Notes under the pieces: model-generated | What the model was told of the DNA's origin: nothing | Seen by the model: the letters and a program-made list of their open reading frames with translations, nothing else | Database searches by the model: none | Source: an uncultured Gemmatimonadales bacterium | GTDB lineage: Bacteria > Gemmatimonadota > Gemmatimonadetes > Gemmatimonadales > GWC2-71-9 | Direction: 5' to 3' | Assembly: GCA_963755425.1 (NCBI GenBank) | Contig: CAVWJI010000004.1 | Coordinates: forward strand, 61,621 to 125,620 | Length of the DNA stretch: 64,000 nucleotides | Made by a program: the position numbers and the translations under genes | In this document: piece after piece, positions 7,037 through 61,738 of the stretch | Position numbering within the stretch: the stretch's first letter is position 1 | Layout of the letters: every line of letters begins with the position of its first letter

Positions 7037-7978
7037 TCAGCCGACGTCGTCCGTTCCCTCGTTGATGCCTTCGAAAAGGTACGTGGAGAGATAGCGCTCG
7101 CCGGTGTCGGGGAGCATCGCCAGCACGACCGTCCCTTCGGGTGACCGTTCGGCGACCCGTCTCGCCGCCGCGAACGTCCCGCCCGACGAAACTCCGCAGA
7201 AGATCCCTTCCTGCGTGGCCAGGCTGCGTGCCGCGTCGCGGGCCTCCAGGTCGCTGACCTTGACGATCTCGTCGGCGATCGTCCGGTCGAGTACTTCCGG
7301 AACGAAGTCCGGCGTCCATCCCTGGATCTTGTGCGGATTCCACGCGTCGCCCGACAGCAGCGCCGCCACGTCCGGTTCGGCCACGACAATCCGGATATCG
7401 GGGCGGGCAGCCTTGAGCATTTCGCCGGCTCCGGTGAGAGTGCCGCCGGTGCCCCAGCCGGTAACCCATACATCGAGCCGCTGTGCGGCGAAATCGCGCA
7501 GGATCTCGGGTCCGGTCGTCTGGCGATGATAGGCGGGATTGGCCGGATTCTCGAATTGGCGCGCCAGGAACCAGCCGTGTTGCGCGGCGAGTTCGGCGGC
7601 CTTCCGCACCATGCCGGTGCCTTTCTCGGCGGCCGGGGTGAGCACCACCCTGGCGCCTAGGAATCGCATCAGCTTGCGGCGTTCCACCGAGAAGCTCTCG
7701 GCCATCACCGCCACGAACGGATAGCCCTTGACCGCGCAGACCATCGCCAGCGCAATGCCGGTGTTGCCCGATGTCGCCTCGACCACGGTCTGCCCGGGCC
7801 GGAGCGTGCCGCGCTGTTCGGCGTCAGTGATGATGGCGAACGCAAGCCGGTCCTTGACGGACGACATCGGATTGAATGCCTCGCACTTCACATACATGGT
7901 GGTGTGCGACGGCGCGAGCGTGTTGATGCGGACGATCGGCGTGCTGCCGATGGTGCCGAGTATCGAGTCATGAATCAT
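7037..7978 (-). CDS. cysK: Cysteine synthase A (O-acetylserine sulfhydrylase)
   Basis: 313 aa with the PLP-lysine motif (NPMSSVKDR), TSGNTG, and the GTGGT loop of the CysK/CysM family. Confidence 0.9.
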   Translation of the reverse strand: MIHDSILGTIGSTPIVRINTLAPSHTTMYVKCEAFNPMSSVKDRLAFAIITDAEQRGTLRPGQTVVEATSGNTGIALAMVCAVKGYPFVAVMAESFSVERRKLMRFLGARVVLTPAAEKGTGMVRKAAELAAQHGWFLARQFENPANPAYHRQTTGPEILRDFAAQRLDVWVTGWGTGGTLTGAGEMLKAARPDIRIVVAEPDVAALLSGDAWNPHKIQGWTPDFVPEVLDRTIADEIVKVSDLEARDAARSLATQEGIFCGVSSGGTFAAARRVAERSPEGTVVLAMLPDTGERYLSTYLFEGINEGTDDVG

Positions 7979-10862: not shown

Positions 10863-13184
10863 TCAAAGCAGGTTGCTCTGCCGTAGCAACTGCTGCATCC
10901 AGGGTCGTGAGCGGTACGGCCTGAAGACCAGATCCGCCCGAAGCTGGTACAACTGCCAGTCATTCTCCTTCAGCGCCTCTTGCAGCCAGCGGCGTGTGCC
11001 GGTCTCGTCGCCGAGACAGGCGAAAATCCGGGCCACCGGAAAGGCGTCGATATACTCGCCCGCCTGCTGGCGGGCTTCGATTGTCCGGAGATAGGCGCGG
11101 GCATCCGCCTGGCGCCCGCAAAGGGCGTTTGTCGACTCGACAAACCCCATCAGCAGCTGATTGTCCACCGGTGCGGTCGTCGGAGCGAGCGCACGCGCGG
11201 CGTCGCACTGCCCCTCCCGCGCCAATTCCGCAGCGAACTCGCTACGCGCGGACAATCCCCGATCCAATGCGATGGCCTCGTGGAACGCCTGCTTCGCAGC
11301 CGGCAGGCTGTCCGTCAGGAGCAGGATGGTTCCGAGTCGCGTGGCGATGACAACGGACAGCGGATCGAGGGCATGCGCCCGGCGGATCGCGGCCACGGCC
11401 GAATCGAGATGTCCCGAACCCACATCATACCAGGCGCGGAAGAGCCATGTTTCCGCCCGCCCGGGCTCGAGTTCCACCGCCCTGGAGAACTCCGTGGCCG
11501 CGGCGTGCCAGTCGCGGTAGTACATCACCTCGATGAAACCCAGGGTCGCGTGCGCTTCCGCCAGGTCGGGGTTCTCGCTGATTGCTCGCCGGACATCGAC
11601 TTCCGCCGTGCGAAACTGCTCCGCCCCCGCCGCGTCGAAGGGCACCAGCAGGCTTCGGGCAGTCGCTCGGCCGGCCCAGGCCACGGCGTAATCTGGCGCG
11701 CGCAAAATGGCGTCGGAAAGCAGCGCAATCGCGCGGTTGAGCTGCACCGGATCGCGGCTGTCGATTTCGTGACGCGCGCGAAGTACTTCATCGTGGGCGG
11801 TGGAGTCCGGCTGATATGCCGTGCCTGCCGAATTCCGTACGTCCGCCGGGCGCACCTGCAGTCGGCGGGCGACCGAGTCGGCGATGTCGGCGTACAGACG
11901 GTAGAGGTCCCGCGTGACGTCGGGCTGATAGGTGGTGGACCAGATCTCGGACTTGGTGGGCACGTCGTGCAGTGCGACCGAGACGACCAGTGTGTTGCCC
12001 AATTTTTCCAGGCGCCCGGTGATGATATCGGTGACGTGGAGCGTCCTGGCGATAGCGTCGAGATCGGGATCGGGATCCTTGAATCGCATGGACGCCGCCG
12101 GGTCTCGCACGTCGATGCTCCGCAGATTCGAGAGCTTGTCCACCAGGTCGCGGCTGATGCCGTCGCTGAGATAGGCATTCGCGGTGTCGCGCGTGCTATT
12201 GACGAACGGCAGCACCGCGAGCGCGTGGCGCGTCGGGGTGCCGACGGCGGGCGCGCGATGCCGGAGCAGAGCGAACAGAACTGCGCCAGCCACGACGACG
12301 AGAAGCACCCGCCAACCGATCGTGTTCGCCGGCGAACGAGGCTCGGCGGTCGCTCCACCGTCACGAAGCGTTGACTCGAGCGCGCCGGCGGTCCGGAAAC
12401 GACTCGACGGATCCTTGGCGATGGCGGTGAGGACGGTCCGGTTGAGCGACGCCGGGAGATCGGTCCGGAGGGACGCTGGCGGGACCGGCTGCTCCGAGAT
12501 CACCCGGGCGAGGACATGGTGCGAGCTGCCGCCGGTGAATGGCGTGACGCCGGTCAGCATTTCGTAGAGCGTGACGCCGAGGGAATAGATGTCAGTACGG
12601 GCATCCAGCTCGCGCTCGCCGAGCGCCTGTTCCGGACTCATGTACTCGGGTGTTCCGAGCGAGAGTCCTGCCTGTGTGATCCGTGATTCCGTGGGAACGA
12701 CCGCAAGGGCGATCCCGAAGTCTGCAACCAGCGCCTGTCCGTCCTGGAGCAGGATATTCTCGGGTTTGATGTCGCGATGGATCACCCCTTGCCGGTGGGC
12801 GTAGTGGAGAGCCCCGGCGACCTCACCGGCGAGTCGCACCGCGTCAGCGATCGGCAACCGCGGTTCGCGCTCGAGCCGCCCGCGTAGTGACTCGCCGTCC
12901 ACGACCGGCATGACGTAGAAGACGGTGCCCGCGACGGCACCCGAGTCGAACAGTGGCACGATGTGGGGATGATGCAGGTTCGCCGTCGTCCGGATCTCGG
13001 CCAGGAATCGTTCGGCGCCGATCGTGTCGGCAAAGTCCGGGTGCAGGACCTTGACGGCGACTTTCCGCTGGTGCTTCAGATCCTCTGCCAGATACACCGT
13101 CGCCATACCGCCCCGGCCGAGTTCGCGCTCGATGCGGTAGCGGTCGGCGAGGGCGGCCGCGAGGCGGTCGAACGCATCAGTCAA
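10863..13184 (-). CDS. Ser/Thr kinase - TM - periplasmic TolB_N-like domain - TPR repeats
   Basis: 773 aa, intact. It has the Hanks motifs, a TM segment (WRVLLVVVAGAVLFALL), an LAVLPF..YLSDG module and C-terminal TPR-like helices. Confidence 0.9.
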   Translation of the reverse strand: MTDAFDRLAAALADRYRIERELGRGGMATVYLAEDLKHQRKVAVKVLHPDFADTIGAERFLAEIRTTANLHHPHIVPLFDSGAVAGTVFYVMPVVDGESLRGRLEREPRLPIADAVRLAGEVAGALHYAHRQGVIHRDIKPENILLQDGQALVADFGIALAVVPTESRITQAGLSLGTPEYMSPEQALGERELDARTDIYSLGVTLYEMLTGVTPFTGGSSHHVLARVISEQPVPPASLRTDLPASLNRTVLTAIAKDPSSRFRTAGALESTLRDGGATAEPRSPANTIGWRVLLVVVAGAVLFALLRHRAPAVGTPTRHALAVLPFVNSTRDTANAYLSDGISRDLVDKLSNLRSIDVRDPAASMRFKDPDPDLDAIARTLHVTDIITGRLEKLGNTLVVSVALHDVPTKSEIWSTTYQPDVTRDLYRLYADIADSVARRLQVRPADVRNSAGTAYQPDSTAHDEVLRARHEIDSRDPVQLNRAIALLSDAILRAPDYAVAWAGRATARSLLVPFDAAGAEQFRTAEVDVRRAISENPDLAEAHATLGFIEVMYYRDWHAAATEFSRAVELEPGRAETWLFRAWYDVGSGHLDSAVAAIRRAHALDPLSVVIATRLGTILLLTDSLPAAKQAFHEAIALDRGLSARSEFAAELAREGQCDAARALAPTTAPVDNQLLMGFVESTNALCGRQADARAYLRTIEARQQAGEYIDAFPVARIFACLGDETGTRRWLQEALKENDWQLYQLRADLVFRPYRSRPWMQQLLRQSNLL

Positions 13185-49552: not shown

Positions 49553-50068
49553 GTGATCAGGACCGTATCACGCGCCGCGGCAGTCATCGCGCTTGCCGCC
49601 GCTCTTCCCCGTGCCGCCAACGCCCAGATCGGCATCATCGCCCAGGCCGACCACGGCAGCAAGGTTTCCGGCGCCCCGGCCTGGGGCGCTGGCGGCGGCA
49701 TCCGCTTTCCCCTCGGCTACTGGTCGCAGCGCAGCGGCTTCTTCGGCGAGATCACCTTCGACTGGTTCGTTCCGGGAAGGACCACGGTCAACGGAGCCAC
49801 GGTCTCGCAGACCTACTGGGAAGCGAACTTCGACGGCGTCATCGATCTCAAGCCGGCGCGCTGGCTCTTCGTGGGAACCGGCCTCGACTTCACCGACCTC
49901 ACGCTCAATACCGGCAACGTCGCCGCGCCGTACGGCGGCAGCGAGCTGGGCGTCAACCTGATCGGCGGCATCACGCTCGGGAATCGTCACGGCGCGCCGT
50001 TCCTGCAGGCGCGCTACGAGCTGGGCGGCGGCAAGCAGTTCGTGGCCAGCGCCGGGTTGCATTTCTAG
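49553..50068 (+). CDS. Paralogous small outer-membrane beta-barrel protein
   Basis: Signal peptide ..PRAANAQ. It shares blocks with 48871..49422 (YWEANFDG/YWQIEADG, and C-terminal FVASAGLHF/LIRAGIHF). Confidence 0.7.
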   Translation: MIRTVSRAAAVIALAAALPRAANAQIGIIAQADHGSKVSGAPAWGAGGGIRFPLGYWSQRSGFFGEITFDWFVPGRTTVNGATVSQTYWEANFDGVIDLKPARWLFVGTGLDFTDLTLNTGNVAAPYGGSELGVNLIGGITLGNRHGAPFLQARYELGGGKQFVASAGLHF

Positions 50069-50811
50069 CCGGCCGCCGCCTCGACGAAGGCCTCGAACAG
50101 CCGCCCCACGCTTGCGGCGCCGGGGGCGAACGATTCCGGATGCCACTGCACCGCCACGGCGAAGTTGTCACCGGGCAGCTCCGCGCCTTCGATCAGGCCA
50201 TCCGCGGCAATCGCCGCCGGGATCAGCCGCCCACCGAGTTCCCGCACGCCCTGATGATGCATCGAGTTGACCGGCAGGTTGCCGGCGCCGAGGGCCTCGG
50301 CGAGGCGCGTGGCGGGACGGACATCGACGTCGTGGGAGAGGTGGTCTCGCGACCATCCGGCGGTGGGGAAGTAGTCGTGCTTGATGGAATCGGGCCGCTC
50401 GGTGGCGATGTCCTGCCAGAGCGTGCCGCCGGCGGCCACCGCGAGAATCTGCAGTCCGCGACAGAGGCCGAGGAACGGTTTGCCGTCTTTCACCGCCCAG
50501 GTGGACAGTTGCAGTTCCACCGCGTCGCGGGCGGGATCGATGCGGCCCAGCGCCGGGTGCGGTGCTTCGCCGTAGCGCGCCGGATCGATATCGACCCCGC
50601 CCGGTACCAGCACGCCATCGAGCCGGTCGTAGATGGCCCGGAGCGTGTCGGGGTCGTCGTCGACCAGCGGAATCAGCACCGGGAGGCCTCCGGCGTGGCG
50701 TACCGCGGTGACGTAGCGCTGGTTCATGACCCACGACGCCGGCAGGTCGCCGGGTATGTGCTCGATGGCGTGGAGCGTCTGCGTGGTGACGCCGATCAGG
50801 GGACGCCTCAT
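50065..50811 (-). CDS. Class I glutamine amidotransferase-like / peptidase C26 (gamma-glutamyl hydrolase, PuuD-like)
   Basis: GLCRG nucleophile elbow, followed by HH and WHPE motifs. It has an ATGA overlap with the upstream ligase gene. Confidence 0.8.
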   Translation of the reverse strand: MRRPLIGVTTQTLHAIEHIPGDLPASWVMNQRYVTAVRHAGGLPVLIPLVDDDPDTLRAIYDRLDGVLVPGGVDIDPARYGEAPHPALGRIDPARDAVELQLSTWAVKDGKPFLGLCRGLQILAVAAGGTLWQDIATERPDSIKHDYFPTAGWSRDHLSHDVDVRPATRLAEALGAGNLPVNSMHHQGVRELGGRLIPAAIAADGLIEGAELPGDNFAVAVQWHPESFAPGAASVGRLFEAFVEAAAG

Positions 50812-51917
50812 GATCGCACGCCTTCGGCGGTCTCGCGCACCAGCTGGTCGACCACGGCCCGGAGGTCACCGGTGGCGCGCCACGTGGCTTCCTGCCGGTC
50901 GGCGCTGGTGCCTTCCTGCAGCAGCCGGAACGCGTAACCCACTTCGGCGGTACTCCCCAGTTCCTCCACCACGTCGCCAATGAACCATTCGAGCAGTTCG
51001 CGGATCAGTTCGCGCGCCGGAAGCTCGACACCCTTGCCGAAATCGATCATCCGTCCGTCCAGTCCGAAGCGAAGCGCCCGCCACTTGTTCTCTTCGATCA
51101 GGCTGGGCGAGTACTGGCGGAACGACATGTTGTCGCGGCGCAGCTTCCACAGCTTGGCGATGATCGCCTGGAAGATCGCCGCGATGCACACCGCCTCGTC
51201 GACCCGGGTGCAGACGTCACAGACCCGGAACTCGAGGGTGGGGAACTTGTGGTGCGGGCGGACGTCCCACCAGAGCTTGCTGGCGTCCGGGATCGACCCG
51301 GTGGCCACCATGACGTCGACGAATTCCTTGTAGTCCGACCAGGAATTCATCGTGCGCGGCACGCCGGTGCGGGGGAACGACCGGAAGACGATGCTGCGAT
51401 ACGACTTGAGTCCGGTGTGGCGTCCCATCCAGAACGGCGACGAGGTCGACAGCGCCAGCACGTGCGGCAGGAAATAGCGGCAGGCATTCATGGCGTCGAT
51501 GCGGAACTCCGGATCTTCGATGCCGATGTGGACGTGGGTGCCGAAGATGAGCAGCGCCTGCGCCAGCTCCTGCAGATCTTCCTTGACGCCGATGTAGCGC
51601 TCCAGCGGTGTGATCTCCTGGTCGATCCACGACGAAAACGGGTGGGTTCCCGCCGCGGCGATCACCAGGCCGTTCTTGGCTGCCACGTCCATCACCATGC
51701 GGCGCAGCCGCACCAGCTCGGCCTTCGCCTCCGCCGGCGTGTGACAGACCTGGGTGCCGATCTCGACCATCGACTGGTGCAGTTCGGGTTTGATCTCGCC
51801 GAGGATGACCGAGTCCTCCTTGAGGATCTCCGTGATGTAGCTGCGCAGTTCCCGGGTGACCGGATCGATGATCTGGTATTCCTCTTCGATGCCGATGGTG
51901 AGCGATGGGGCTTTCAC
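50808..51917 (-). CDS. Carboxylate-amine ligase, glutamate-cysteine ligase family 2 (YbdK-like)
   Basis: SLTIGIEEEYQIID.. plus GTHVHIG motifs. I chose the GTG start at 51917, with GGGAG 7 nt upstream. The ORF track starts at 51962. Confidence 0.8.
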   Translation of the reverse strand: MKAPSLTIGIEEEYQIIDPVTRELRSYITEILKEDSVILGEIKPELHQSMVEIGTQVCHTPAEAKAELVRLRRMVMDVAAKNGLVIAAAGTHPFSSWIDQEITPLERYIGVKEDLQELAQALLIFGTHVHIGIEDPEFRIDAMNACRYFLPHVLALSTSSPFWMGRHTGLKSYRSIVFRSFPRTGVPRTMNSWSDYKEFVDVMVATGSIPDASKLWWDVRPHHKFPTLEFRVCDVCTRVDEAVCIAAIFQAIIAKLWKLRRDNMSFRQYSPSLIEENKWRALRFGLDGRMIDFGKGVELPARELIRELLEWFIGDVVEELGSTAEVGYAFRLLQEGTSADRQEATWRATGDLRAVVDQLVRETAEGVRS

Positions 51918-51975
51918 GAGGACACTCCCGGCTCGGTCGAGCTCGCCGCGGGCAGGACGCATGCGCCGATGCGGC

Positions 51976-52428
51976 TCATGCGAAGATCCGCGGGTCGAAG
52001 GTGAACTTCCGCTGCCGCTTCAATTTCACCTGACCGAACCGCGGATGCACTGGATTGATGAGGAGATTCCACTCTTCCGCCGCCGGCGCCGATGGCACCA
52101 GCAGCGCCAGCGTCTTGCCTGCCGCCCGCCACGCGTCGCCGGCGGTGCGGCAGGTGGCGTGCTCCGGCACCCTCGCCCAGGTGGCGGGAAGCCGCTTGAC
52201 GTCGAGGCGGTCGATGGCGGCGTCAGGCACCGAAACCTCGAGCACGTAGAGGTCCCGCGGCGCATCCTGCACGTCGACATGGACCAGCAGCTCGAGTGCC
52301 GCCAGGGCACGGCTCGACGAGCAGTAGATGACCGGCCGCCCGGCGGTATTCCACCGCCCGCCGTAGAGCCGCGCCCCTTCGCCATCGAGTGCCCGATGGG
52401 CGCGCCGGCAGATGCGATACGCCAGCAT
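51976..52428 (-). CDS. RES-domain toxin (NAD+-targeting RES-Xre/MbcT-ParT family)
   Basis: 150 aa with R..GGRWN..(Y)CS..ALAALE, the spacing typical of RES domains. Confidence 0.8.
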   Translation of the reverse strand: MLAYRICRRAHRALDGEGARLYGGRWNTAGRPVIYCSSSRALAALELLVHVDVQDAPRDLYVLEVSVPDAAIDRLDVKRLPATWARVPEHATCRTAGDAWRAAGKTLALLVPSAPAAEEWNLLINPVHPRFGQVKLKRQRKFTFDPRIFA

Positions 52429-52430
52429 GC

Positions 52431-52868
52431 TCAGCTGTACACGCCGTGCTCGATACGCCCCAGCACGCGCTCCACCGCCTGCGCCCCGGCGTCGCTGTCG
52501 AGCAGATGGAGCGGAATCCGGCCACCCAGGGCACGATTGGCCTTGCCCATCCAGCGATTGGCGGCGTCGCGATCGCCCAGCGCCTCTTGCGCTCGCACGA
52601 CCACCCGGACCAGGCGTGCCAGACGGTCCGACTCTTCCGCCGAGAGCGGTGCGCCGGACGTGCGTTTCCGTTGCAGCGTTCGCGCGCTGCCCACCACGCG
52701 GTAGAGCTCCTGCTGGGTGCCGAGGCCCGGGGTGAACGCCTGCAGGACGTGGTCGAGCGAGCCCGCGGGCAGCCCCTTGCGGACCACGTCGGCAAGTTCG
52801 ATCTCGGAGCTGACCGTGCGGTGCAGCACCGCGTAGCCACCGAGTTGTTCCGCGACGCGCCATGTCAT
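52431..52868 (-). CDS. Xre/MbcA/ParS-type antitoxin (DUF2384)
   Basis: ..LSAEESDRLARLVRVVVRAQEALGDRDAANRWMGKANRALGGRIPLHLLDSDAGAQAV.. matches the DUF2384 C-terminal domain. It lies 2 nt upstream of the RES gene. Confidence 0.8.
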   Translation of the reverse strand: MTWRVAEQLGGYAVLHRTVSSEIELADVVRKGLPAGSLDHVLQAFTPGLGTQQELYRVVGSARTLQRKRTSGAPLSAEESDRLARLVRVVVRAQEALGDRDAANRWMGKANRALGGRIPLHLLDSDAGAQAVERVLGRIEHGVYS

Positions 52869-52972
52869 GCTGCCTCCCCGGGCCGGAGCCGCTGCGCCAT
52901 TTGACGCTTTGATTTTACCCATTTGGCGCGCCGGCGGCAACCCGCGGGCGGCATGCCGGCGCCCGCCGGCCG

Positions 52973-53034
52973 GCTACTCCCGCCGCGCCACCACGAACGT
53001 CGGCACCGTCGAGCCGCCGCCAGCGGTGACGTTC
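52973..53034. repeat. Orphan copy of the last 19 codons + stop of the circularly permuted ATP-grasp gene (left boundary repeat of islet 1)
   Basis: 59 of 62 nt are identical to 57545-57606. Translated on the minus strand it gives the identical peptide NVTAGGGSTVPTFVVARRE*. Confidence 0.9.
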
Positions 53035-53143
53035 CGGGTTGCGGCTAGTCATCTTGCGTGGTAGTTATGACGCGACACCGCCAACGTGCTGGCCCGGTGC
53101 CGCTCGTAACTCGGGGGTCCAAGTTTACATGCGGGAGAAAGCT

Positions 53144-54001
53144 ATGCCGCATCTGGACGGTCCGGGGGCGCCCATACTTGTCATCGTCGACGATGAGGAC
53201 GACCGGAATTCACTCCGGAGTGAACTCGGGTCGCGCTGCCGCGTGCTGACGCCGGCGACCGCCGAAGCGGCCCTGGTAAATGCGCTGATTCCAGCTCCCA
53301 GATGGGTTGTGATGGACACGTTTACCGCGGCCTCGTCGATCCCTGCGGTGCTTCGCTTACACTGCCAATACGGCACGCGCCTCATTCTGCGACCGAGGGC
53401 CGTCAGCAGGTCCTTGATGGCCATCCGGTCGCTGATTGATTCGGGCCTCCCAGTCAGTATTGCACTGCAGCCGGTTCGAGGGGTCGGGGCGGGCATCGCA
53501 GCGCTGCTTGCCGATCCCGATCCCGGGCCCGTTACCGCGATGCTTCGCGTCGCACTCCCGCTGCGCGACGAACGGGTCTGGCAATACGTCGCCGTCGCCG
53601 CCGCCGCTGGGCGGGATGGCGCGAGCGTCACGCGCTATGCGGCATTCTTCGGGGAGGCGGTGCGAACGGTCGAACTCCATTGTCATCGGCTCGGATTGCC
53701 GTCACCCCGACGACTTCTCGATTGGACCAGATGTATCTGGGGTCTCTGGCGCCTTCAGCGTTGGGAGTGGACGCTGAAGCGTGCCTCGGCGATGGCTGGT
53801 TTTCACGACCGGAACGGCCTCAATCGTTGCTTGCGCCGATTGAGGCTCATGCGGTTCGGCGATCGGAATTCACCCGACCCGATCGAACGGGCGCTCACGC
53901 TGTTCGCGATGTCGCTGACGCCTCCGCCTCCCCCCCCAGCCCCCCGGGGGTGGCGCCCGAACCCCGCCCAATGGGCCGACCGCGCTGGGGGCTGCGGATA
54001 A
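53144..54001 (+). CDS. Regulator: degenerate receiver-like N-terminal domain + AraC-type HTH C-terminal domain
   Basis: ILVIVDDEDD and WVVMD resemble REC beta1/beta3 acidic residues, but no lysine is present in the domain. The C-terminus (..ELHCHRLGLPSPRRLL..ASAMAGFHDRNGLNRCLRR) fits the AraC HTH pair. The ATG is preceded by GGGAGAAAG. Confidence 0.6.
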   Translation: MPHLDGPGAPILVIVDDEDDRNSLRSELGSRCRVLTPATAEAALVNALIPAPRWVVMDTFTAASSIPAVLRLHCQYGTRLILRPRAVSRSLMAIRSLIDSGLPVSIALQPVRGVGAGIAALLADPDPGPVTAMLRVALPLRDERVWQYVAVAAAAGRDGASVTRYAAFFGEAVRTVELHCHRLGLPSPRRLLDWTRCIWGLWRLQRWEWTLKRASAMAGFHDRNGLNRCLRRLRLMRFGDRNSPDPIERALTLFAMSLTPPPPPPAPRGWRPNPAQWADRAGGCG

Positions 54002-54185
54002 GTAGCAAACCTTGCGGATTGTGCCGCAGTCCAACGGCGCGGCTCCGGTTGCGGGATCGGCGACCTGACCGTATCGTGTTCAATCGGTCGGGTCGTTCAT
54101 GGTTCCGGCCCGCCGTACGAGCTAACATTGCTTTCACATCCATCTACTCACACGGAGGATTCAATGCGCAACACGTAAGGAGTGG

Positions 54186-54440
54186 GTGCGGGCGCTCGCC
54201 GCTCTCGGTACGGTCGTCGCTCTCGCTGTCATCCTAGACGGGTCCCAGCCGGTTAGCGCGACGCAGGGCGCGTATTGTCAAGACTCGGACTCAGGTCACG
54301 CGTGCGTCACGACGGGCGAGTTTGTGCAAGGCGAATACTGCGACGCTGGCTCTTGCACCACCTGCCACATCATAACGGGTTACCGATGCGATCCGTTCGG
54401 GAGCGGCATTGACGTTGAAGATTGGGCGATGGGCTATTGA
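54186..54440 (+). CDS. Secreted cysteine-rich peptide precursor (signal peptide + ~59-aa mature part with 6 Cys)
   Basis: ALAALGTVVALAVILDGSQPVSA|TQGAYCQDSDSGHACVTTGEFVQGEYCDAGSCTTCHIITGYRCDPFGSGIDVEDWAMGY. The GTG at 54186 follows AAGGAG. The true start may be the ATG at 54164 (see findings). Confidence 0.6.
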   Translation: MRALAALGTVVALAVILDGSQPVSATQGAYCQDSDSGHACVTTGEFVQGEYCDAGSCTTCHIITGYRCDPFGSGIDVEDWAMGY

Positions 54441-54495
54441 CCGTCGCGCATTGACGGCGGTGCCCCGTACAGACGTTGCAGGCATGGGCCACTGC

Positions 54496-55578
54496 ATGTC
54501 GCGCGCTGTGTGGCTAGGGTTGACGGTGGCGGCGGCATGCGGGCGGCCTCATGGTGTGGAGCGTGCTGGATCGGTGCCGGACCCCACGGATCGTGAACCG
54601 CGGCTGGTTGAGTACCGGGTTCCGGTCGAGTCCCTCGTGGGTACCGCCATCATCGCCGATCCGGTGATCGGCCGCCCGTCGAATCTGGCGATCAGCGGGA
54701 GTCAACTTTGGATATCCGATCGATCGGGTAACCCGTTCCTCCATGTCGCCTACCTCGATTCGGCGGCGCTGTCATACTCGGAGGGTAGGGCCGGCGAGGG
54801 TCCGGGAGACTTTCATGTCGTGTCTAGCCTGAGCAAGCGTCCGGGCGACGATCGCGGGGTATGGGCGTTCGATGAGGAATTGCGCCGGATGACCCGGTTG
54901 ACCGCTGATTCCGTGGGAGTTGCCACCAGGGAACTCGGAACTCCATCCGGCCGAATCGTCTTCGATATGCAATGGCTCGTGAAGGACCGTCTGATCGCCG
55001 TCGGCGACCTGGACACCAACCGGTTCATCATCGGCGACACGGCCGGTCGTACCGTGAGGATCATACCGGGGCACCTACTCGGTCCCGATTCCGTCGGCGT
55101 TGAAGCGCGGCGGGCGCTATCCACTGGTGTTCTGCTTTGCACGGCGCCGGCGAGCGGGCGATTCGCCGTGGTATACGTCGGGGCGGGCCGAGTCGAGCTT
55201 CACGACTCGACGGGCGGGCTGATCGCGCTCGCCGATGTCCCGTTTCGGAGCGACGGGGCTTTCTGGCGCGCCCGGTCGGGGCGGTGGGAAATGCGGACGC
55301 CGTGGCGCTTCTACGCCGGCTGTGCCTTCGGCACCAAGTTTCTCTACGCCTTGTTTGCCGGAACACGAACCGACATTCCAGGGTCGGGTATTGCGGTCGA
55401 GGCGCAATATGTTCACGTGTTCGACCGAGACGGTGCTCTGGAGGCCGTGTTACGGCTCGATTTGCCCATGAGTGCGCTCGTGGTAAGCGGCGACACCGTG
55501 CTGTACGCTGCGGGGAGCGATGATGCGAGGGTTTATCGATTCAGGTTGCCGGCGATTCCCGACCGTGCGTCCCGATGA
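54496..55578 (+). CDS. Lipoprotein, predicted 6-bladed (TolB/NHL-like) beta-propeller
   Basis: MSRAVWLGLTVAAAC lipobox-like signal, a GEGPGDF motif and repeated beta-strand-rich blades. The stop overlaps the next start (ATGA). Confidence 0.6.
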   Translation: MSRAVWLGLTVAAACGRPHGVERAGSVPDPTDREPRLVEYRVPVESLVGTAIIADPVIGRPSNLAISGSQLWISDRSGNPFLHVAYLDSAALSYSEGRAGEGPGDFHVVSSLSKRPGDDRGVWAFDEELRRMTRLTADSVGVATRELGTPSGRIVFDMQWLVKDRLIAVGDLDTNRFIIGDTAGRTVRIIPGHLLGPDSVGVEARRALSTGVLLCTAPASGRFAVVYVGAGRVELHDSTGGLIALADVPFRSDGAFWRARSGRWEMRTPWRFYAGCAFGTKFLYALFAGTRTDIPGSGIAVEAQYVHVFDRDGALEAVLRLDLPMSALVVSGDTVLYAAGSDDARVYRFRLPAIPDRASR

Positions 55579-56291
55579 GCATCCGGACCCGGCCGATGAA
55601 ACGTATTCTCGACGGCACGACAGTCGCGCTCTGCCTGGTCGCCGTAGGGCTGGGAGCTATCGCAATTCGTGGGAAGGTCGCTACTCAAGGTACGTCCCGT
55701 CCGGGAAGCAGCGCGGTGCGGCCATCGAGCGCGGCCGTCGGTTCGCTCGACGATGAGGCCTTCAACAGGCTTGCCTCCATCGGCGACCGGATCGGCCCGG
55801 CTGACGCTCCGGTGACGATCGTCGTGTACTCCGACTACTCCTGCGGCCATTGCATGGAGTTCGAACCGGCGCTGGAAGAGCTGCTGACCCGATTTCCACA
55901 GCACGTCGCGATAGTCATGAAGCCATACCTGCCTGTCGTATCACCGATCCCGCTCGTCAACTATCTGGCGGCGGAATGCGCTGCGGAACAGGGGCGCTTT
56001 GCGCCATTCAACCGCGGTCTCTTCCGTGCCGCGCAGGGCGGTCTGGGATTTGATTCGTGGCGGCGTGTGGCTGATTCCATCCGCATGCCGCATTTCGACC
56101 GGTTTCTGTTCTGCGTTCGATCTCGGCACTACCTGGGTCGGGTGAGAAGTGAGACCGAGGAAGGAATGCGGCTCGGGGTGACCGGAACACCGGTCTCATT
56201 CGTCAACGGAATTCGAGTTGTCGGCGCCGTACCCTTCGTCGTTCTCGATTCGATCGTCGCGTCCTTCCTGAATCGCGAGCACCGCAGGTGA
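55575..56291 (+). CDS. Membrane-anchored DsbA/Thioredoxin_4-like thiol:disulfide oxidoreductase with CGHC active site
   Basis: N-terminal TM segment (TTVALCLVAVGLGAIAI), then VTIVVYSDYSCGHCMEFEP..AAECAAEQGRF..GVTGTPVSFVNG, which is the DsbA-family layout. Confidence 0.75.
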   Translation: MSIRTRPMKRILDGTTVALCLVAVGLGAIAIRGKVATQGTSRPGSSAVRPSSAAVGSLDDEAFNRLASIGDRIGPADAPVTIVVYSDYSCGHCMEFEPALEELLTRFPQHVAIVMKPYLPVVSPIPLVNYLAAECAAEQGRFAPFNRGLFRAAQGGLGFDSWRRVADSIRMPHFDRFLFCVRSRHYLGRVRSETEEGMRLGVTGTPVSFVNGIRVVGAVPFVVLDSIVASFLNREHRR

Positions 56292-57526
56292 TGACGTCGC
56301 ACTCACTGGCTACACATCAGTGGTTGCACGCAGTTCTCATTGCAGCCGCGCTCTATCGGCCCGATCTCGCAGCCCAGTCACCCATGGTCCGCGACAGCGA
56401 CGGCGTGCGCATCGTCGAATACCCGTCGTCCGGTCTGCCGCGTTCGCCGCCGTTCACCATCGCCGCCGCCCCTGTCGTGACGATCGGTGATGGCACGACG
56501 AACTCTGTTGATCTCGGCGATGTTCGTGGTGCCGTGCGCTTCCGGGACGGCACGCTCCTCATTGCGGACGGCGAACATTGCCACGTCGATCTCGTTGATA
56601 CCGCCGGCCGGCTCCGCGCTCGGATTGGCTCCAGAGGGCTTGGCACCGAACCAGGGGAATTCAATGGCATCCTGAGTGTATTTCCTCTTCCCGGGGACCT
56701 CGCCGGCGTATGGGATGGCGGCAACCACGAGCTTTCCGTGTTCGATCGGGCCGGCCGGATTGTTCGGTGGCGACGATTCGCCGCGCCACCATATCAGGCA
56801 ATTCCGGGTCAGACCGGGCGGCTGCGACTGATTCGCGCCGTTGAGGGCGCCTTCGACGATGGCACCATGCTGGCCTGGACTTGGTTGCCGTACACAAATG
56901 CCGGGTATACTCACGTATATACCGACTCGGCAACGGTCGAGGCCATTCCTTCACACGGCGCGCCGCGTACGCTGCGCACGGTGGTGCTGGCCGACAATTT
57001 CGTCAGCCGACGTGGGCGCGGCGCGGATGGCGCGTTGCCATTCGGCCGGGTCGGTTGTCTGGCCATCGATCATGCCGCATGGTATTACACTGATGGGAGC
57101 GGCGAAGTCAGGCAGTACGCGTCCGGCGGTCGCCTGCTCGGAATCATCCGATTCGACGAACCGGCGGCCGCCGTGACGCCCTCGGATATCGCCGCGTATC
57201 GAGAGCGTCACCTCTCTCGTCTCGATCCCCGCCTGCGGCAGGCGTATCGCGCGGCGCTCGATTCGTTGCGATATCCCGCTACCAGGCCGCGGTACACGGC
57301 TCTCCGAATGGACCACACCGGAGATCTCTGGGCCCGGCGTTTCAGTTTTGACGGCGATCCGGCGATCTGGGACGTCTTTACCGCAGCGGGCGGATACCTC
57401 GGCAGCGCGACAGTGCCGCCGGATCAGGACGTGCTTGACATCAGCAGCGACTACGTCGTCGCGATGCATGTGGATACCCTCGGCAACGAAAGCCTGCGGG
57501 AGTACCGTATCCAGCGTCCCCGCTGA
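56288..57526 (+). CDS. Secreted predicted 6-bladed beta-propeller protein (paralogous class to 54496..55578)
   Basis: Signal peptide ..AALYRPDLAAQ, a GTEPGEF motif, and a GTGATGA start/stop overlap with the oxidoreductase gene. Confidence 0.6.
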   Translation: MMTSHSLATHQWLHAVLIAAALYRPDLAAQSPMVRDSDGVRIVEYPSSGLPRSPPFTIAAAPVVTIGDGTTNSVDLGDVRGAVRFRDGTLLIADGEHCHVDLVDTAGRLRARIGSRGLGTEPGEFNGILSVFPLPGDLAGVWDGGNHELSVFDRAGRIVRWRRFAAPPYQAIPGQTGRLRLIRAVEGAFDDGTMLAWTWLPYTNAGYTHVYTDSATVEAIPSHGAPRTLRTVVLADNFVSRRGRGADGALPFGRVGCLAIDHAAWYYTDGSGEVRQYASGGRLLGIIRFDEPAAAVTPSDIAAYRERHLSRLDPRLRQAYRAALDSLRYPATRPRYTALRMDHTGDLWARRFSFDGDPAIWDVFTAAGGYLGSATVPPDQDVLDISSDYVVAMHVDTLGNESLREYRIQRPR

Positions 57527-57544
57527 CTGCGCTGTCGGATCGCC

Positions 57545-57606
57545 GCTACTCCCGCCGCGCCACCACGAACGTCGGCACTGTCGAGCCGCCGCCGGCGGTG
57601 ACATTC
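57545..57606. repeat. Right boundary repeat of islet 1 (the functional 3' end of the ATP-grasp gene)
   Basis: See 52973-53034. Confidence 0.9.
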
Positions 57607-58901
57607 ACCAACGTCGACGTCGAGATCCGGCAGAGGAGGCCGTCGGCGAACCCACCGTGCCAGCAGAACGGCGCGGCATCGACGATCCGTTCGTCGAACA
57701 CCAGGCGGCCGTCGGCCACCGCCGGAAACACCTCCCGGGGCAGCGGGATCCGGCGCTGCACCACGTACGGTGCATCCAACGCCGTGCGCAGCGCCGCTTC
57801 CCACACCGGCTGCTCCACTTCCCAGCCCAGCACGATGCCGGCCCCGCCGTAATCGTCGTTCGGCTTGAGCACCAGCGTGCTCCGGTTCGCCGCGACCCAC
57901 GGCACCAGATCGACCGTGGCGCCATCGGCCGTGGTGTTCCGGTGCTCCACCACCCGGGTCCACGGGATGTGGCGCGCGATTGCCTCGCGCTGCGCGGCGG
58001 AGAACATCGCCGCATTCCGTTCGTCACTCAGCACCGCCAGCGACGCCTTCTTGTGGAGCGGCTTGCATGCGAACGGATTCACCAGGCAGGCATTGCCCTC
58101 GAGCACCGCGCGCACCAGCGGCTGGTCGAGGCCGCCTTCGGCAACGAGCTCATGAATGAGCACTCGTTTGTAGATCAGGTCGATGGCGGTACCATCGGCA
58201 TCGCGGAGCACGCCGTGTTGGTAGCATAGTGCCCCGGGCGTGGTGATGCGGCAGGGAAACCCCATGGCGCCGAAATAGTCCCGGGCAAGCCGGAACTCGG
58301 CCGCCGTCGGCACATCGTCCCAGTCGACGATGGCGATCGACGGCCGCGCCCGCGTGCCCCGGAAGTGATACCAGACATCGAGCAACGTGTTGAGCAGGTG
58401 ATGGCGGGCGGGCAGCGGCTGGACCTGCCAGCGCCGAGTGAACTCCCGCATGGCGGGCAGGGCAAGAAAGAGTTCGGCCAGCACGTCGGTATACGCGGTG
58501 CCGGCTGGCGTTTCGGCGTTGTACTCGGTCACCCACGGCGTGCCGGCGGCGTCGATGAACGTGTCCAGCCGTGAAAGCGGCGCCGAGCTCGACAGTGCTG
58601 GCGCCTGCTCCAACAGCGTGATTTCCCAGTCGGCCAGACGGAACTGCCCCCGGAACGCGGCGTCGTCGAGGGCCCGTTGCCCCGCAACGGCGAAGGCGTC
58701 GAGCAGGGCGTCACTCGTGCCGCAGAGCCGGCGGTATGTCTCCGGGGAAAGGAAGCGCGGCCGGATCACCGTGCAGAGGGGCCGGTCGCCGAAGGTCAGG
58801 CCGCGTTCCTGCTGGCGAGTGGTGAGCCACGCCGCCGATTCCGCGGCGATTTCGTCGTCGAGGCCGTCGTGCCACGCCCGGGCGGCATCACCGGCCATCA
58901 T
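57546..58901 (-). CDS. Circularly permuted type-2 ATP-grasp protein (glutathionylspermidine-synthase-like amidoligase)
   Basis: About 450 aa with ..VTEYNAETPAG..LVLKPNDDYGGAGIVLGWE.., typical of the family. I chose the start at MMAGDAARAW. Confidence 0.75.
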   Translation of the reverse strand: MMAGDAARAWHDGLDDEIAAESAAWLTTRQQERGLTFGDRPLCTVIRPRFLSPETYRRLCGTSDALLDAFAVAGQRALDDAAFRGQFRLADWEITLLEQAPALSSSAPLSRLDTFIDAAGTPWVTEYNAETPAGTAYTDVLAELFLALPAMREFTRRWQVQPLPARHHLLNTLLDVWYHFRGTRARPSIAIVDWDDVPTAAEFRLARDYFGAMGFPCRITTPGALCYQHGVLRDADGTAIDLIYKRVLIHELVAEGGLDQPLVRAVLEGNACLVNPFACKPLHKKASLAVLSDERNAAMFSAAQREAIARHIPWTRVVEHRNTTADGATVDLVPWVAANRSTLVLKPNDDYGGAGIVLGWEVEQPVWEAALRTALDAPYVVQRRIPLPREVFPAVADGRLVFDERIVDAAPFCWHGGFADGLLCRISTSTLVNVTAGGGSTVPTFVVARRE

Positions 58902-58902
58902 G

Positions 58903-59853
58903 TCACCGGGTGCCGCCGAACAGCGCCCGCACCTCGGGCGGCGGCGGGGCGTGAGGCCTGAACGCCCGGGCAATCGCCATGTCGGCCATCTGCTTCACCG
59001 CCCAGTCGAAGTACTTCGGCGTCAGCGAATTGACGTCGAAATCGGGCGCCGGATTCATGAAGTCGATGGCGTAGGGCACGCCGCCACGGATGGCCCATTC
59101 GATGGAATTCATGTCGTAGCCCAATGCCCGCACCAGGGTGCGCGACTTGGTGATGATCTCCTCGCGGAGCGGGCCAGGCAGGAAGTCGTCGGCGTCGTGG
59201 TACTTCTTCTCCCGCGGGTCGTACTTGATGGGGAGAATCTCCTCCCGTCCGATGCAGAGGCACCGCACGAACTCGTCCCAGGCGATGAATTCCTGCACGA
59301 TCATCGTGAGCAGCCCGCTCTGGTCGTAATGGTGGATCAGTTCCTCGAGGGTACGACAGACATAGACATCGCGCCACCCGCCGCCGTGCGCATCCTTGAG
59401 GATGCAGGGCATGCCGACATAATCGGCGACGGCACTCCAGTCGAGGGGATAGACCAGGTTGCGCAGCGACTCGTCGTGCCTGATGCCGGGGACGTACGCC
59501 TTGTTGGGCAGCGCCATGGTCTTCGGCGAAGCGATGCCGTTGGCCTCGGCCAGCGTCGCCTCGAAGAACTTGTCGTCAGCGGTCCACATGAAGGGGTTGT
59601 TGATGACGGTGGTGCCGCGGAGCACGGCGTGCTTGAGCCAGATGCGGTAGAAGGGCACCTCGTGCGAGATGCGGTCGATCACCACGTCGTAGATCAGCCG
59701 CTCGTCGGCGGGCGGCGCGCCAAGACGGACGTACTCGGCCGTGACTCCGGCGTCGCGACGGTTCACCTCTTCGATGAACGCCGGCGGCCAGGACCATTCC
59801 CGGCCCACCAGCAGGCCGATGCGCCGCGCCGGAAAGTGCGTGTTCACGGTCAT
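58903..59853 (-). CDS. ATP-grasp family ligase (RimK/glutathione-synthetase-like)
   Basis: 316 aa with ..PCILKDAHGGGWRDVY..IVQEFI..IDFMNPAPD.. ATP-grasp blocks. Confidence 0.75.
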   Translation of the reverse strand: MTVNTHFPARRIGLLVGREWSWPPAFIEEVNRRDAGVTAEYVRLGAPPADERLIYDVVIDRISHEVPFYRIWLKHAVLRGTTVINNPFMWTADDKFFEATLAEANGIASPKTMALPNKAYVPGIRHDESLRNLVYPLDWSAVADYVGMPCILKDAHGGGWRDVYVCRTLEELIHHYDQSGLLTMIVQEFIAWDEFVRCLCIGREEILPIKYDPREKKYHDADDFLPGPLREEIITKSRTLVRALGYDMNSIEWAIRGGVPYAIDFMNPAPDFDVNSLTPKYFDWAVKQMADMAIARAFRPHAPPPPEVRALFGGTR

Positions 59854-59865
59854 GGGTTCCGTTCC

Positions 59866-60591
59866 TCAGTCGTGTCCACTGATGTACCGCCGCACCATCC
59901 GCTGCCACCACGGCCAGTCGTGCGCCCAGCCGTCCCAGACCCGCAGCGCGTTGCCGATCCCGCGGTCGACCAGCGTCGCGGAGAACTCCTCGTTGTAGCG
60001 GCAGAGCGCGTCGTCGCGCCCCACCGCCAGGATGATGTCCATCTGCCGGAACGCCGCGAGGCGGGCCGGATCGTGCTCGTGCCGCATGAAGTCGGCAGGA
60101 TTGAAGAAGTACACCAGGTCGTCGGAGAAGCCGCCGGTCAGCCGCTTGATGTCGGGCAGGCCGCTCATCGACAGCACGCGACCGACCCGCTCGGGGTGGC
60201 GACAGGCAAACGACAGCGCGTGATAGCCGCCGAACGACGTGCCGGTGAGGATCAGGAAGGGATTGCCGTTGACCGACTCGGTATACGGCAGCACCTCCTG
60301 CAGCAGCGCCAGGTCATAGCGCTGCTGCCATTCGGCGCGCTTGTGGATCGCCACCGATTCGTTGTACCACGAGAGGTCGTCGACGCTGGACACGCAGAAC
60401 AGCTGCAGCAGGCCGGCCTCGAGCTGGTCGCCCAGCGCCGCGCACATGCCGCAGTCCTCCCACTGGCGCCAACTCCCCTGGCTGGTGGGAAAGACGATGG
60501 CGCGAGCGCCGGCGTGGCCGTGCACCGCCAGCTCGACACGACGGCCGTCGAGGGCCGGTGAATCCCACGCGTGATGACTGCGCTGCCACAT
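59866..60591 (-). CDS. Esterase-family alpha/beta hydrolase
   Basis: GTSFGG nucleophile elbow. I chose the start at MWQRSHHAW. Confidence 0.7.
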   Translation of the reverse strand: MWQRSHHAWDSPALDGRRVELAVHGHAGARAIVFPTSQGSWRQWEDCGMCAALGDQLEAGLLQLFCVSSVDDLSWYNESVAIHKRAEWQQRYDLALLQEVLPYTESVNGNPFLILTGTSFGGYHALSFACRHPERVGRVLSMSGLPDIKRLTGGFSDDLVYFFNPADFMRHEHDPARLAAFRQMDIILAVGRDDALCRYNEEFSATLVDRGIGNALRVWDGWAHDWPWWQRMVRRYISGHD

Positions 60592-60635
60592 GCGGGGTCG
60601 TTCCGTTGCGGGAGGGGTGCTGGAAAGTAGCAAAC

Positions 60636-60669
60636 GGCGGGCGGGAAGGCTTGTCACTTCCCGTCCGCC
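60636..60669 (-). terminator. 13-bp-stem hairpin between the DUF2442 gene and the esterase gene
   Basis: ggcgggcgggaag-gcttgtca-cttcccgtccgcc, with one G-U pair. Confidence 0.55.
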
Positions 60670-60717
60670 GATCGTCACACCGGGCCCGCCGGCCCGCCGC
60701 CGCCCGCGTCGTCGCGA

Positions 60718-60999
60718 TCAGCGCCGAGGATACCCCGGGCGTCGTCGCCCGCCCGCCGGCTTCGCGGCGCGCTTCGCTTCTTCGTAGAGCGCCTCCGGCG
60801 CCACGTCCGCTCCGTTGGGCCAACTCACCGTGTCGCCGTCGATCAGGAAGCGGGTGAAATACGTCTTGTCCCTGAGCGGCGCAAAGACCGGCCCCATCCC
60901 CAGGTAGGGATGGAAGTCCACCGTCCCGGCGGTGCCGTCGCGGAAGACCAGGCGGATGCGGTAGCCGCCCCGATACTTCGCATCGACGACGCTGGGCAT
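60718..60999 (-). CDS. DUF2442-domain protein
   Basis: MPSVVDAKYRGGYRIRLVFRDGTAGTVDF..FLIDGDTVSWPNGADVAPEALY matches DUF2442. Confidence 0.75.
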   Translation of the reverse strand: MPSVVDAKYRGGYRIRLVFRDGTAGTVDFHPYLGMGPVFAPLRDKTYFTRFLIDGDTVSWPNGADVAPEALYEEAKRAAKPAGGRRRPGYPRR

Positions 61000-61007
61000 C
61001 GCCGGGT

Positions 61008-61268
61008 TTATCGGTGCGGCTCGACCCGCCCGAGCGCGTTGCCCCCCCTTGCGTGCTGCCACAGTGCCTCCAGTTCGCCCCGATGAAGTTCGAGCCATTC
61101 GGCGATGCGCCGGCGCGCGGTACCCGACCGGATTTGCCCGGCGATCACCTCTCCAGTCAACGTATACTTGGCAAACTCCCCGCGATACTCGGCATGGACG
61201 TGCGGCGGCGCATGGTCGCCATAGTACATGCGGATGGTAATCCCCCGGAAAGATGCGATAATCGGCAT
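61008..61268 (-). CDS. DUF4160-domain protein
   Basis: MPIIASFRGITIRMYYGDHAPPHVHAEY.. is the DUF4160 signature. It lies 8 nt upstream of the DUF2442 gene. Confidence 0.75.
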   Translation of the reverse strand: MPIIASFRGITIRMYYGDHAPPHVHAEYRGEFAKYTLTGEVIAGQIRSGTARRRIAEWLELHRGELEALWQHARGGNALGRVEPHR

Positions 61269-61368
61269 CGTGGCAATGGATTGCACGATGCCGATTGGCG
61301 GGTCTCGATCCGCCGCAGGGGTGGCCACATTAACGCGAGTTGACTGTTGAAGGCGGTGAAGCGACGAT

Positions 61369-61696
61369 CCTACTCCGCCCGCATCACCTCCACCGGGTCC
61401 ACCCGCAGCGCGCGGCGGGCGGGCACCAATGTCGCGACCGCGGCGGCGAGCAGCAGCAGTACCGGCACTGCCACGAACGTCGCCGGGTCGTGGATGCCGA
61501 CGCCGTAGATCAGCGACGACAGCACCCGTGCCAGCGCCCAGGCGCCGGCCAGCCCCGCCCCGATTCCGATCACCGCCACCAGCGCCATCTCCCGCGACAG
61601 CAACCTCAACAGGTTCGACCCGGACGCGCCGAGGGCCGCGCGAATGCCGAGTTCGCGATGGCGCTGGGTGACGCCATAGCTCACCACTGCGGCGAC
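61369..61696. repeat. Left boundary repeat of islet 2 (orphan copy of the FtsX/ADOP permease 3' end)
   Basis: 328 nt aligning with 63308-63636, with about 15 substitutions and one 1-nt indel by hand alignment. Confidence 0.9.
61370..61687 (-). pseudogene. Orphan C-terminal fragment (last ~105 codons) of an ABC-transporter FtsX-like permease
   Basis: ..RHRELGIRAALGASGSNLLRLLSREMALVAVIGIGAGLAGAW..RRALRVDPVEVMRAE*. There is no upstream permease sequence. Confidence 0.85.
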
Positions 61697-61709
61697 CGGA
61701 GGGTAGTCG

Positions 61710-61738
61710 TTGACAATATCCGTAACACTACGTATGTT
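61710..61738 (+). promoter_or_regulatory. Sigma70-like promoter TTGACA-N17-TATGTT at the islet 2 left edge
   Basis: A perfect -35 hexamer and a 17-nt spacer. Caveat: it overlaps the only ATG/TTG start candidates of the downstream ORF, so either the promoter or the start call is wrong. Confidence 0.35.

Follow-up and report, generated by a model that had tools for sequence, protein, structure and literature searches.

Within the 64,000-nt stretch of DNA analysed here (the window), which derives from a metagenome-assembled genome (MAG) of an uncultured Gemmatimonadales bacterium (GCA_963755425.1, contig CAVWJI010000004.1, positions 61,621-125,620 of the forward strand), the 3' end of a minus-strand gene (57546..58901) abuts a 4510-bp islet of five plus-strand genes (53035..57544, islet 1), which are convergent with it. 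The islet is bracketed by two copies of a 62-nt sequence (52973-53034 and 57545-57606) that lie on the same strand and share 59 of 62 bases. At up to three mismatches, the 62-mer matches the whole window at these two places only, and dinucleotide-preserving shuffles yielded a second match in 0 of 100 cases. In its minus-strand layout, each copy is made up of 1 nt, a TAG codon, the last 19 codons of the gene and 1 further nt, and both translate to the same peptide, NVTAGGGSTVPTFVVARRE, followed by the stop codon. The right copy (57545..57606, minus strand) is the true end of a 451-aa open reading frame (ORF), and the target gene thus remains intact in the occupied locus. The left copy (52973..53034, minus strand) is an orphan, with a stop codon and unrelated sequence preceding its codons. 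It diverges from its counterpart by 4.8%, without any indel or non-synonymous change.

The target gene is the third gene of a conserved operon encoding an esterase, an ATP-grasp-like protein, the 451-aa protein itself, a YbdK-type carboxylate-amine ligase and a C26 peptidase. The same set of genes accompanies its relatives at ~39-54% identity in several phyla, and the relatives found in the genome collection belong to Gemmatimonadales MAGs. Taken alone, the window protein stays below threshold and matches no Pfam model. However, CP_ATPgrasp_2 (PF14403) is matched by 13 of the 14 members of its family, and the family profile matches PDB entry 3n6x (7e-09) as well as the acid-amine ligases YgiC/YjfC. 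Judged by these profile matches, the target is a circularly permuted ATP-grasp ligase. Importantly, the 62-nt block sits inside the most conserved motif of this family, NVTAGGGSTVPTF, which is encoded by the regenerated right copy. Because the last 19 codons hold this motif, a gene with a disrupted end would very probably be non-functional, so that any insertion at this position would need to restore the end.

To see the locus without the islet, one can turn to the closest genomes, L001 (a complete 3.33-Mb chromosome, OY970263.1) and L002, both of which are Gemmatimonadales MAGs; according to a cluster look-up, the clade of the window genome comprises three genomes in the collections. L001 and L002 contain the esterase gene, both ATP-grasp genes and the genes for Xre, RES, YbdK and C26 in the order of the window. 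In both, the five islet genes are absent, the ATP-grasp gene is followed by an intergenic gap of 111-158 bp, and the 62-mer occurs once. The alignment of the window with L001 proceeds from YbdK through Xre and the intergenic DNA into the orphan copy and halts exactly at 53034, where the alignment with L002 ends as well, while both 62-nt copies of the window align to one and the same L001 segment (11296-11357). The region between the original gene end and Xre (52869..52972, minus strand) aligns with the intergenic DNA of L001. Since the orphan is joined to this native DNA, it represents the ancestral gene end, still attached to its original surroundings. The DNA on either side of the islet (57556-57780 and 52660-52955) resembles that of L001, indicating that no foreign flank DNA arrived with it. 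The islet also stands out by its composition. Its G+C content is 64.1%, compared with 67.3% in the rest of the window, making it the lowest 4.5-kb stretch there, and the G+C content at third codon positions (GC3) is 0.69-0.72 in its five genes, as opposed to 0.84-0.89 in the flanking genes. The 4.5-kb segment is therefore an insertion of compositionally foreign DNA with exact junctions. A previous sequence-only reading of this stretch had described a 62-nt repeat with three mismatches whose right copy is the real gene end, an identical peptide with exclusively synonymous differences in the left copy, and a five-gene module of lower G+C whose last stop codon lies 18 nt from the repeat. Coordinates, translations, G+C and GC3 values bear out this anatomy, including the proposed difference in composition from the flanks; the label of the target as an ATP-grasp protein is upheld by its family, and the predicted empty site, with a single 62-mer and the ATP-grasp gene followed by Xre/RES, is present in both relatives.

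The neighbourhood of the islet has a history of its own. In distant relatives, YbdK directly follows the ATP-grasp gene, which points to the Xre-RES toxin-antitoxin pair as an earlier insertion at the same spot. A promoter-like sequence, TTGCCG-17-TAAAAT (52912-52940), precedes this pair, and having its own promoter may make another insertion at this position tolerable. At the nucleotide level, the esterase gene is 99-100% identical to that of L001, the ATP-grasp gene ~78% and the start of Xre 94-97%, and the YbdK gene shares 93-98% identity with that of L002. These shifts in identity to L001 and L002 over short tracts (window 50000-61400) indicate frequent homologous exchange in the population.

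The cargo of islet 1 was characterised by scans against Pfam, NCBIfam, PHROGs and PADLOC, complemented by a full HMMER family search for gene 1, and homologues of the islet proteins were counted among 5.8 billion proteins. Gene 1 (53144..54001, plus strand; 285 aa) encodes a predicted AraC-type helix-turn-helix (HTH) regulator whose N-terminal domain is receiver-like. On its own, the protein matches no Pfam model and is essentially unique in the protein homologue search, but its HMMER family has 157 representatives, with HTH_18 detected in 30 of the 40 members that were aligned and scanned, and the family profile matches AdpA and VirS, along with weak receiver-domain matches at the N-terminus. 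A single-sequence AlphaFold model of the protein (pLDDT 44.6) was too poor for use. Gene 2 (54186..54440, plus strand; 84 aa) encodes a predicted small secreted Cys-rich protein, with a hydrophobic, signal-like N-terminus followed by seven Cys residues, for which Pfam, NCBIfam and PHROGs gave no family match. The product of gene 3 (54484..55578, plus strand; 364 aa) is a probable lipoprotein with a signal and lipobox-like N-terminus; its match to the TolB-like six-blade propeller PF15869 is weak (E=0.0013) and below the gathering score. Gene 4 (55575..56291, plus strand; 238 aa) encodes a putative membrane-anchored DsbA/thioredoxin-like oxidoreductase with a CGHC motif (Thioredoxin_4, 4.8e-14; DSBA, 2.3e-11). 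Gene 5 (56288..57526, plus strand; 412 aa from a GTG start, or 380 aa from a start at 56384 in the database version) encodes a predicted secreted protein of unknown family with weak, paralogue-like similarity to gene 3. Its homologues amount to itself and two proteins at 28-30% identity, one of which (P0003) stands alone in an unrelated neighbourhood in the single context fetched. The stop codon of gene 5 (57524-57526) lies 18 nt from the right 62-nt copy. By their sequence features, the products of genes 2-5 look extracytoplasmic and that of gene 1 looks like a regulator, so the cargo may constitute an envelope or secreted module under the control of a regulator.

Islet 1 is not the only element of this kind in the window, and the earlier description of a single islet was incomplete in this respect. 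A whole-window repeat search revealed a second, larger direct repeat (328/329 nt, ~95% identical) 4 kb to the right. Here, a displaced 3' fragment of an FtsX-type permease gene (61369..61696, minus strand), consisting of 108 codons, the stop codon and 1 nt, is separated from the regenerated permease 3' end (63308..63636, minus strand; the gene extends past the window end) by a second islet of 1.6 kb (61697..63307, plus strand; islet 2). With a G+C content of ~57%, islet 2 is the lowest-GC stretch of the window. It has a strong promoter-like site and two genes, coding for a Cys-rich lipoprotein (ORF 61710-62795, plus strand) and a small membrane protein (ending at 63277, plus strand), which are convergent with the permease target, as in islet 1. 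Islet 2 contains no recombinase, nor did it give any Pfam, PHROG or PADLOC family matches. In L002, the permease end is uninterrupted and islet 2 absent. L001, by contrast, carries islet 2 at 95.6% identity with the same junctions, and its displaced fragment has suffered a 141-nt internal deletion, as expected for the decay of dead DNA. The gene-attached permease copy of the window differs from the orphan, L001 and L002 by one extra G (~63379), which shifts the frame of the last ~23 codons, and carries three amino-acid changes of its own close to where the repeat begins; the orphan copy is in frame. The extra G reflects either a consensus error or a degenerating 'working' copy of the permease gene. 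Across the repeat, 6 of the 14 differences are non-synonymous, and the four permease-end copies form a reticulate pattern that suggests conversion between repeats.

The presence of islet 2 in L001 also bears on the possibility that strain variants were joined by the metagenome assembler, creating a false duplication. The window was drawn from a 294-kb MAG contig, islet 1 is known from one assembly only, and the 1-nt indel in the permease repeat hints at consensus errors. However, both junctions of islet 1 are clean, and because its two 62-nt copies differ at three sites, they were neither collapsed nor copied by the assembler. Moreover, the L001 chromosome was assembled independently, so the shared junctions of islet 2 argue that the architecture is real and older than the split between L001 and the window genome. 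We therefore consider an assembly artefact highly improbable.

Several further observations concern the surroundings of the two repeats. Toxin-antitoxin-like pairs follow both displaced fragments, namely Xre-RES (51976-52868) in the case of islet 1 and DUF4160-DUF2442 (60718-61330) in that of islet 2; L002 has a lipoprotein gene at the position occupied by DUF4160-DUF2442 in the window and L001. Both repeats end with GGAGTAG plus 1 nt (52973-52980 and 61369-61376), and both target genes end with Glu-TAG. In gene sense, both repeats start at or near GTCRCCGC (53027-53034 and 61689-61696), a likeness that is probably due to chance in DNA of 67% G+C.

The lipoprotein of islet 2 leads to a third case. 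The members of its small, rare family, with 14 homologues (P0004-P0017) among all proteins searched, have the motifs HxGDSE and KHANY and a large number of cysteines in common; an AlphaFold model of the protein (mean pLDDT 66.5) had no significant Foldseek match in the PDB. One homologue, 37% identical, is found in L020 (5710-7898; the same in L021) in a low-GC islet of 2.1 kb that is flanked by a perfect 43-nt direct repeat. This repeat extends from position 33 of a tRNA-Arg(TCT) gene, in the anticodon loop, to its 3' end plus 1 nt, and here, too, cargo and target are convergent. The lipoprotein gene is likewise followed by one for a small membrane protein, whose similarity to its counterpart in the window is marginal. 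Neither the islet nor its surroundings within 11 kb contain an integrase, and inspection by eye of the ORFs in its 455-nt non-coding tail revealed no obvious integrase remnant. Members of one lipoprotein family are thus found in two genomes at different targets, a permease gene end and a tRNA-Arg gene, and the identity block of each of the three islets extends exactly 1 nt beyond its gene. Other homologues of the lipoprotein lie in unrelated contexts without flanking repeats. In L017, a 98-aa fragment (7073-7369) with an IS3-type HTH_21 domain, probably the remnant of a transposase, comes after the lipoprotein homologue. In two different genomes, a distant homologue of islet 1 gene 5 and a homologue of the islet 2 lipoprotein each lie divergent beside an operon for the beta and alpha subunits of electron transfer flavoprotein (L011 8087-11218 and L033 4696-7632), loci that may represent another hot spot for secreted-protein accessory genes.

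How the repeats arose depends in part on the differences between their copies. The three mismatches in the 62-mer (AAT/AAC, GCC/GCT and ACA/ACG) are all synonymous third-position changes, from which the sequence-only reading had concluded that the gene end brought along by the islet had evolved independently and that the pattern does not fit random duplication. The first of these conclusions is not established, and the argument is weak in statistical terms. If all three differences had arisen on the orphan, which is free of constraint, they would all be synonymous with a probability of 0.03; with only one of them on the orphan, this probability is 0.31. In addition, polarisation against L001 and L002 identifies one change as specific to the gene copy, one as specific to the orphan and one as polymorphic, and this mixed polarity is compatible with in-situ divergence of an initially identical duplication. 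A long target-site duplication made at insertion, for instance by fill-in of a staggered break during end-joining, could thus have diverged in place, a scenario that finds further backing in the many non-synonymous differences of the permease repeat. Nevertheless, we regard it as improbable. No bacterial mechanism is known to produce duplications of 62-328 nt, all three blocks end at the same position relative to their genes, terminal inverted repeats and a transposase are lacking, and the orphan has diverged without a single disruptive change.

We lean, if only slightly, towards a different origin, in which islet 1 was made by an integrase through site-specific integration and is now a cargo-only element, either similar to the cis-mobilisable elements (CIMEs) described below or mobilised in trans. 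In this model, a reciprocal recombination event of the Campbell type in the final 62 nt of the ATP-grasp gene would have brought in the horizontally acquired islet, with a site-specific tyrosine-type integrase as the likeliest catalyst. The incoming DNA would have brought its own copy of the last 19 codons, thereby keeping the gene intact. Its gene-proximal copy (57545-57606) would then have become the working end, and the original end would survive as a non-functional fragment (52973-53034), separated from the gene by 4.5 kb and still contiguous with the native intergenic DNA and the Xre-RES promoter. At present, the islet would either have lost its integration module, like a CIME, or rely on a recombinase encoded elsewhere. 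Since the copy supplied by the element serves as the functional end for as long as the element is integrated, it would be maintained by selection, which would explain why the differences are exclusively silent. Regenerated targets with displaced fragments are the defining footprint of integrase-mediated islands, and anticodon-centred attP sites represent the commonest crossover class of tyrosine integrases (PMC4383910). The start of the tRNA-Arg block in the anticodon loop, the extension of the blocks 1 nt past the gene end and the start of the 62-nt block inside a conserved motif are all as expected if the element carries, 3' of its crossover point, a copy of the gene end. The recurrence of the architecture in islet 2 and the tRNA-Arg islet supports integration as well. 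Of the att-like integration into a gene end that had originally been proposed, the insertion, the regenerated end and the displaced fragment are thus confirmed; the involvement of an integrase at the junctions and the assignment of one copy to the incoming islet are inferences.

Several observations weigh against this origin, above all the missing recombinase. In agreement with the sequence-only reading, the family scans found no integrase, transposase or relaxase in islet 1, and the 40 further ORFs of the window that were scanned include kinases, peptidases, a TonB-dependent receptor and others, with no recombinase or transposase among them. As the non-coding gaps of islet 1 measure at most 184 nt, they leave no space for an integrase remnant, so that decay of an integration module would have to have been very tidy, three times over. 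Viral contigs contained no integrase-bearing element with the ATP-grasp attachment (att) block, no second copy of the gene end was seen in the loci of relatives retrieved by the genome and metagenome scans, and the ends of the three islets share no motif above shuffled controls. Finally, att identity segments tend to be shorter than the 328 nt of the permease block. Other searches were equally negative. No helper, related integrase-bearing element or tandem array was found in the window, the relatives' loci, the viral contigs or the metagenome loci. Degenerate patterns of the 62-mer, the tRNA 43-mer and the permease end had 0 matches in viral contigs, and the metagenome scan with the ATP-grasp protein returned relatives at ≤53% identity, all with the plain operon and no orphans. 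Blastn of islet 1 against plasmid and phage collections gave no match, and no terminal inverted repeats above shuffled controls were detected at the ends of the three islets. An Rfam scan of 50-64 kb had no match either, and no tRNA genes were found in the window. Exact look-ups of proteins encoded by the window returned no record.

A number of other identities for islet 1 were considered and rejected. Its gene 1 is not a hidden recombinase, given its membership in an AraC-type HTH family. With no PHROG match below E=0.04, no relative in viral contigs and no phage structural, replication or packaging genes, the islet is neither a prophage nor a phage satellite. The lack of inverted repeats and a transposase, together with duplications of 62 and 328 nt, speaks against a DDE or other transposon, and a role as a defence system was ruled out for want of a PADLOC match. 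A distant part of the window (1-34000) contains seven to nine paralogous segments of ~300 nt, 60-90% identical and distributed over 34 kb. Of the large ORFs in which they lie, at least three encode Ser/Thr protein kinases with TPR repeats; two more ORFs match PD40 repeats.

The absence of recombinase genes from all three islets can also be read as a sign that none was ever needed. A circle containing the cargo and a short segment of the 3' end of the gene could have inserted through a single RecA crossover, in which case excision and re-insertion would be possible with host functions alone. The block lengths of 43, 62 and 328 nt vary as if they were set by the homology carried, tracts resembling L001 and L002 alternate on a fine scale along the locus, and the reticulate permease-end copies suggest conversion between repeats, all of which would suit such a process. 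We still consider it fairly unlikely. At 43-62 nt, two of the blocks lie near the lower limit for efficient RecA recombination. Furthermore, the initial capture of a gene end would call for a separate illegitimate event, three times, and the model accounts neither for the exact position of the block ends, 1 nt beyond the stop codon or the tRNA gene, nor for the start of the tRNA block in the anticodon loop, the classic crossover site of integrases (PMC4383910).

The mosaic structure of the locus likewise raises the question of whether the islet was delivered on a linear donor molecule, by homologous recombination within the ATP-grasp gene on one side and an illegitimate join on the other. If the far end had been joined 62 nt before the recipient's stop codon, the gene end of the recipient would have been stranded. 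Such one-sided events are known in transformable bacteria and proceed without an element-encoded enzyme (PMC3240628). They would be favoured in this highly recombinogenic population and could account for the different lengths of the orphans (62 and 328 nt). However, the donor must already have had the islet abutting the stop codon, which shifts the problem one step back. In addition, both flanks are L001-like, with no detectable donor tract, and the anticodon-loop start of the tRNA repeat is again left unexplained. This route thus appears quite unlikely to us, and we retain integrase-mediated integration as the preferred explanation.

It is tempting to speculate beyond the individual islet. 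The occurrence of one lipoprotein family in both a permease-end and a tRNA-Arg islet gives a hint of cargo shuffling between carriers. Gemmatimonadales may carry compact, promoter-bearing, cargo-only cassettes that mimic the 3' ends of their targets, be they protein-coding or tRNA genes, and that are moved without a recombinase of their own, via RecA or foreign integrases, with the cargo being shuffled between target sites. At this stage, we view this generalisation as unlikely to hold.

At base-pair resolution, the locus shows how genes were gained by insertion into the end of a coding motif that looks essential, in a soil phylum that has hardly been studied; the empty site, the occupied site and a decaying displaced fragment are all visible. 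The three compact islets without an integrase would form a class that is missed by tools requiring an integrase, such as Islander. If they were indeed mobilised in trans or by host recombination, this would bear on the spread of small secreted-protein cassettes in soil bacteria; if they are simply decayed islands, the finding is an ordinary one.

The architecture of islet 1 has counterparts in known systems. In Escherichia coli, the prophage e14 supplies a working end to the icd gene, while the displaced icdC fragment stays at its far side (PMC13626634). As in islet 1, e14 and phage 21 insert inside the 3' end of a protein-coding gene, provide a replacement end and displace a C-terminal fragment, and the differences between the e14 copies are mostly silent or conservative (PMC13626634). 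Unlike the 4.5-kb islet 1, however, e14 measures 15 kb, has its own integrase and excises after SOS induction, whereas islet 1 has no recombinase, 0 PHROG hits and a Gemmatimonadales host. The ends of the islands catalogued by Islander at tRNA and tmRNA genes are marked, like those of the islets described here, by a restored target gene and a displaced 3' fragment of it in the same orientation, and the L020 islet bears the exact Islander signature, including the anticodon-loop start (PMC4383910). Islander islands contain an integrase gene by definition, whereas the islets of the window lack one and reside in protein-coding genes. Homology-facilitated illegitimate recombination and Campbell-type plasmid integration also place foreign DNA beside a homologous anchor without an element-encoded enzyme, and a single crossover duplicates the anchor. 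However, these laboratory-defined processes have random end points and predict neither gene-end-exact blocks nor a start in the anticodon loop. CIMEs, such as the one at the 3' end of fda in Streptococcus thermophilus, keep attL and attR and have lost their integration genes; they are thought to derive from, or to be moved by, integrase-bearing elements at the same site (PMC5704250). Islet 1 resembles them in that it lacks integration and transfer genes. Its two repeats, which are intact and 95% identical, would be putative attL and attR sites. What identifies CIMEs, however, is that they are related to, and accreted in tandem with, a family of integrative and conjugative or integrative and mobilisable elements, and no such element was found for islet 1. 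Further recombinase-less comparators are the pseudo-SCC (staphylococcal cassette chromosome) cassettes without ccr genes at rlmH in staphylococci. The architecture of islet 1 is thus already known, and its missing integrase has precedents both in CIMEs and in recombinase-less gene-end cassettes.

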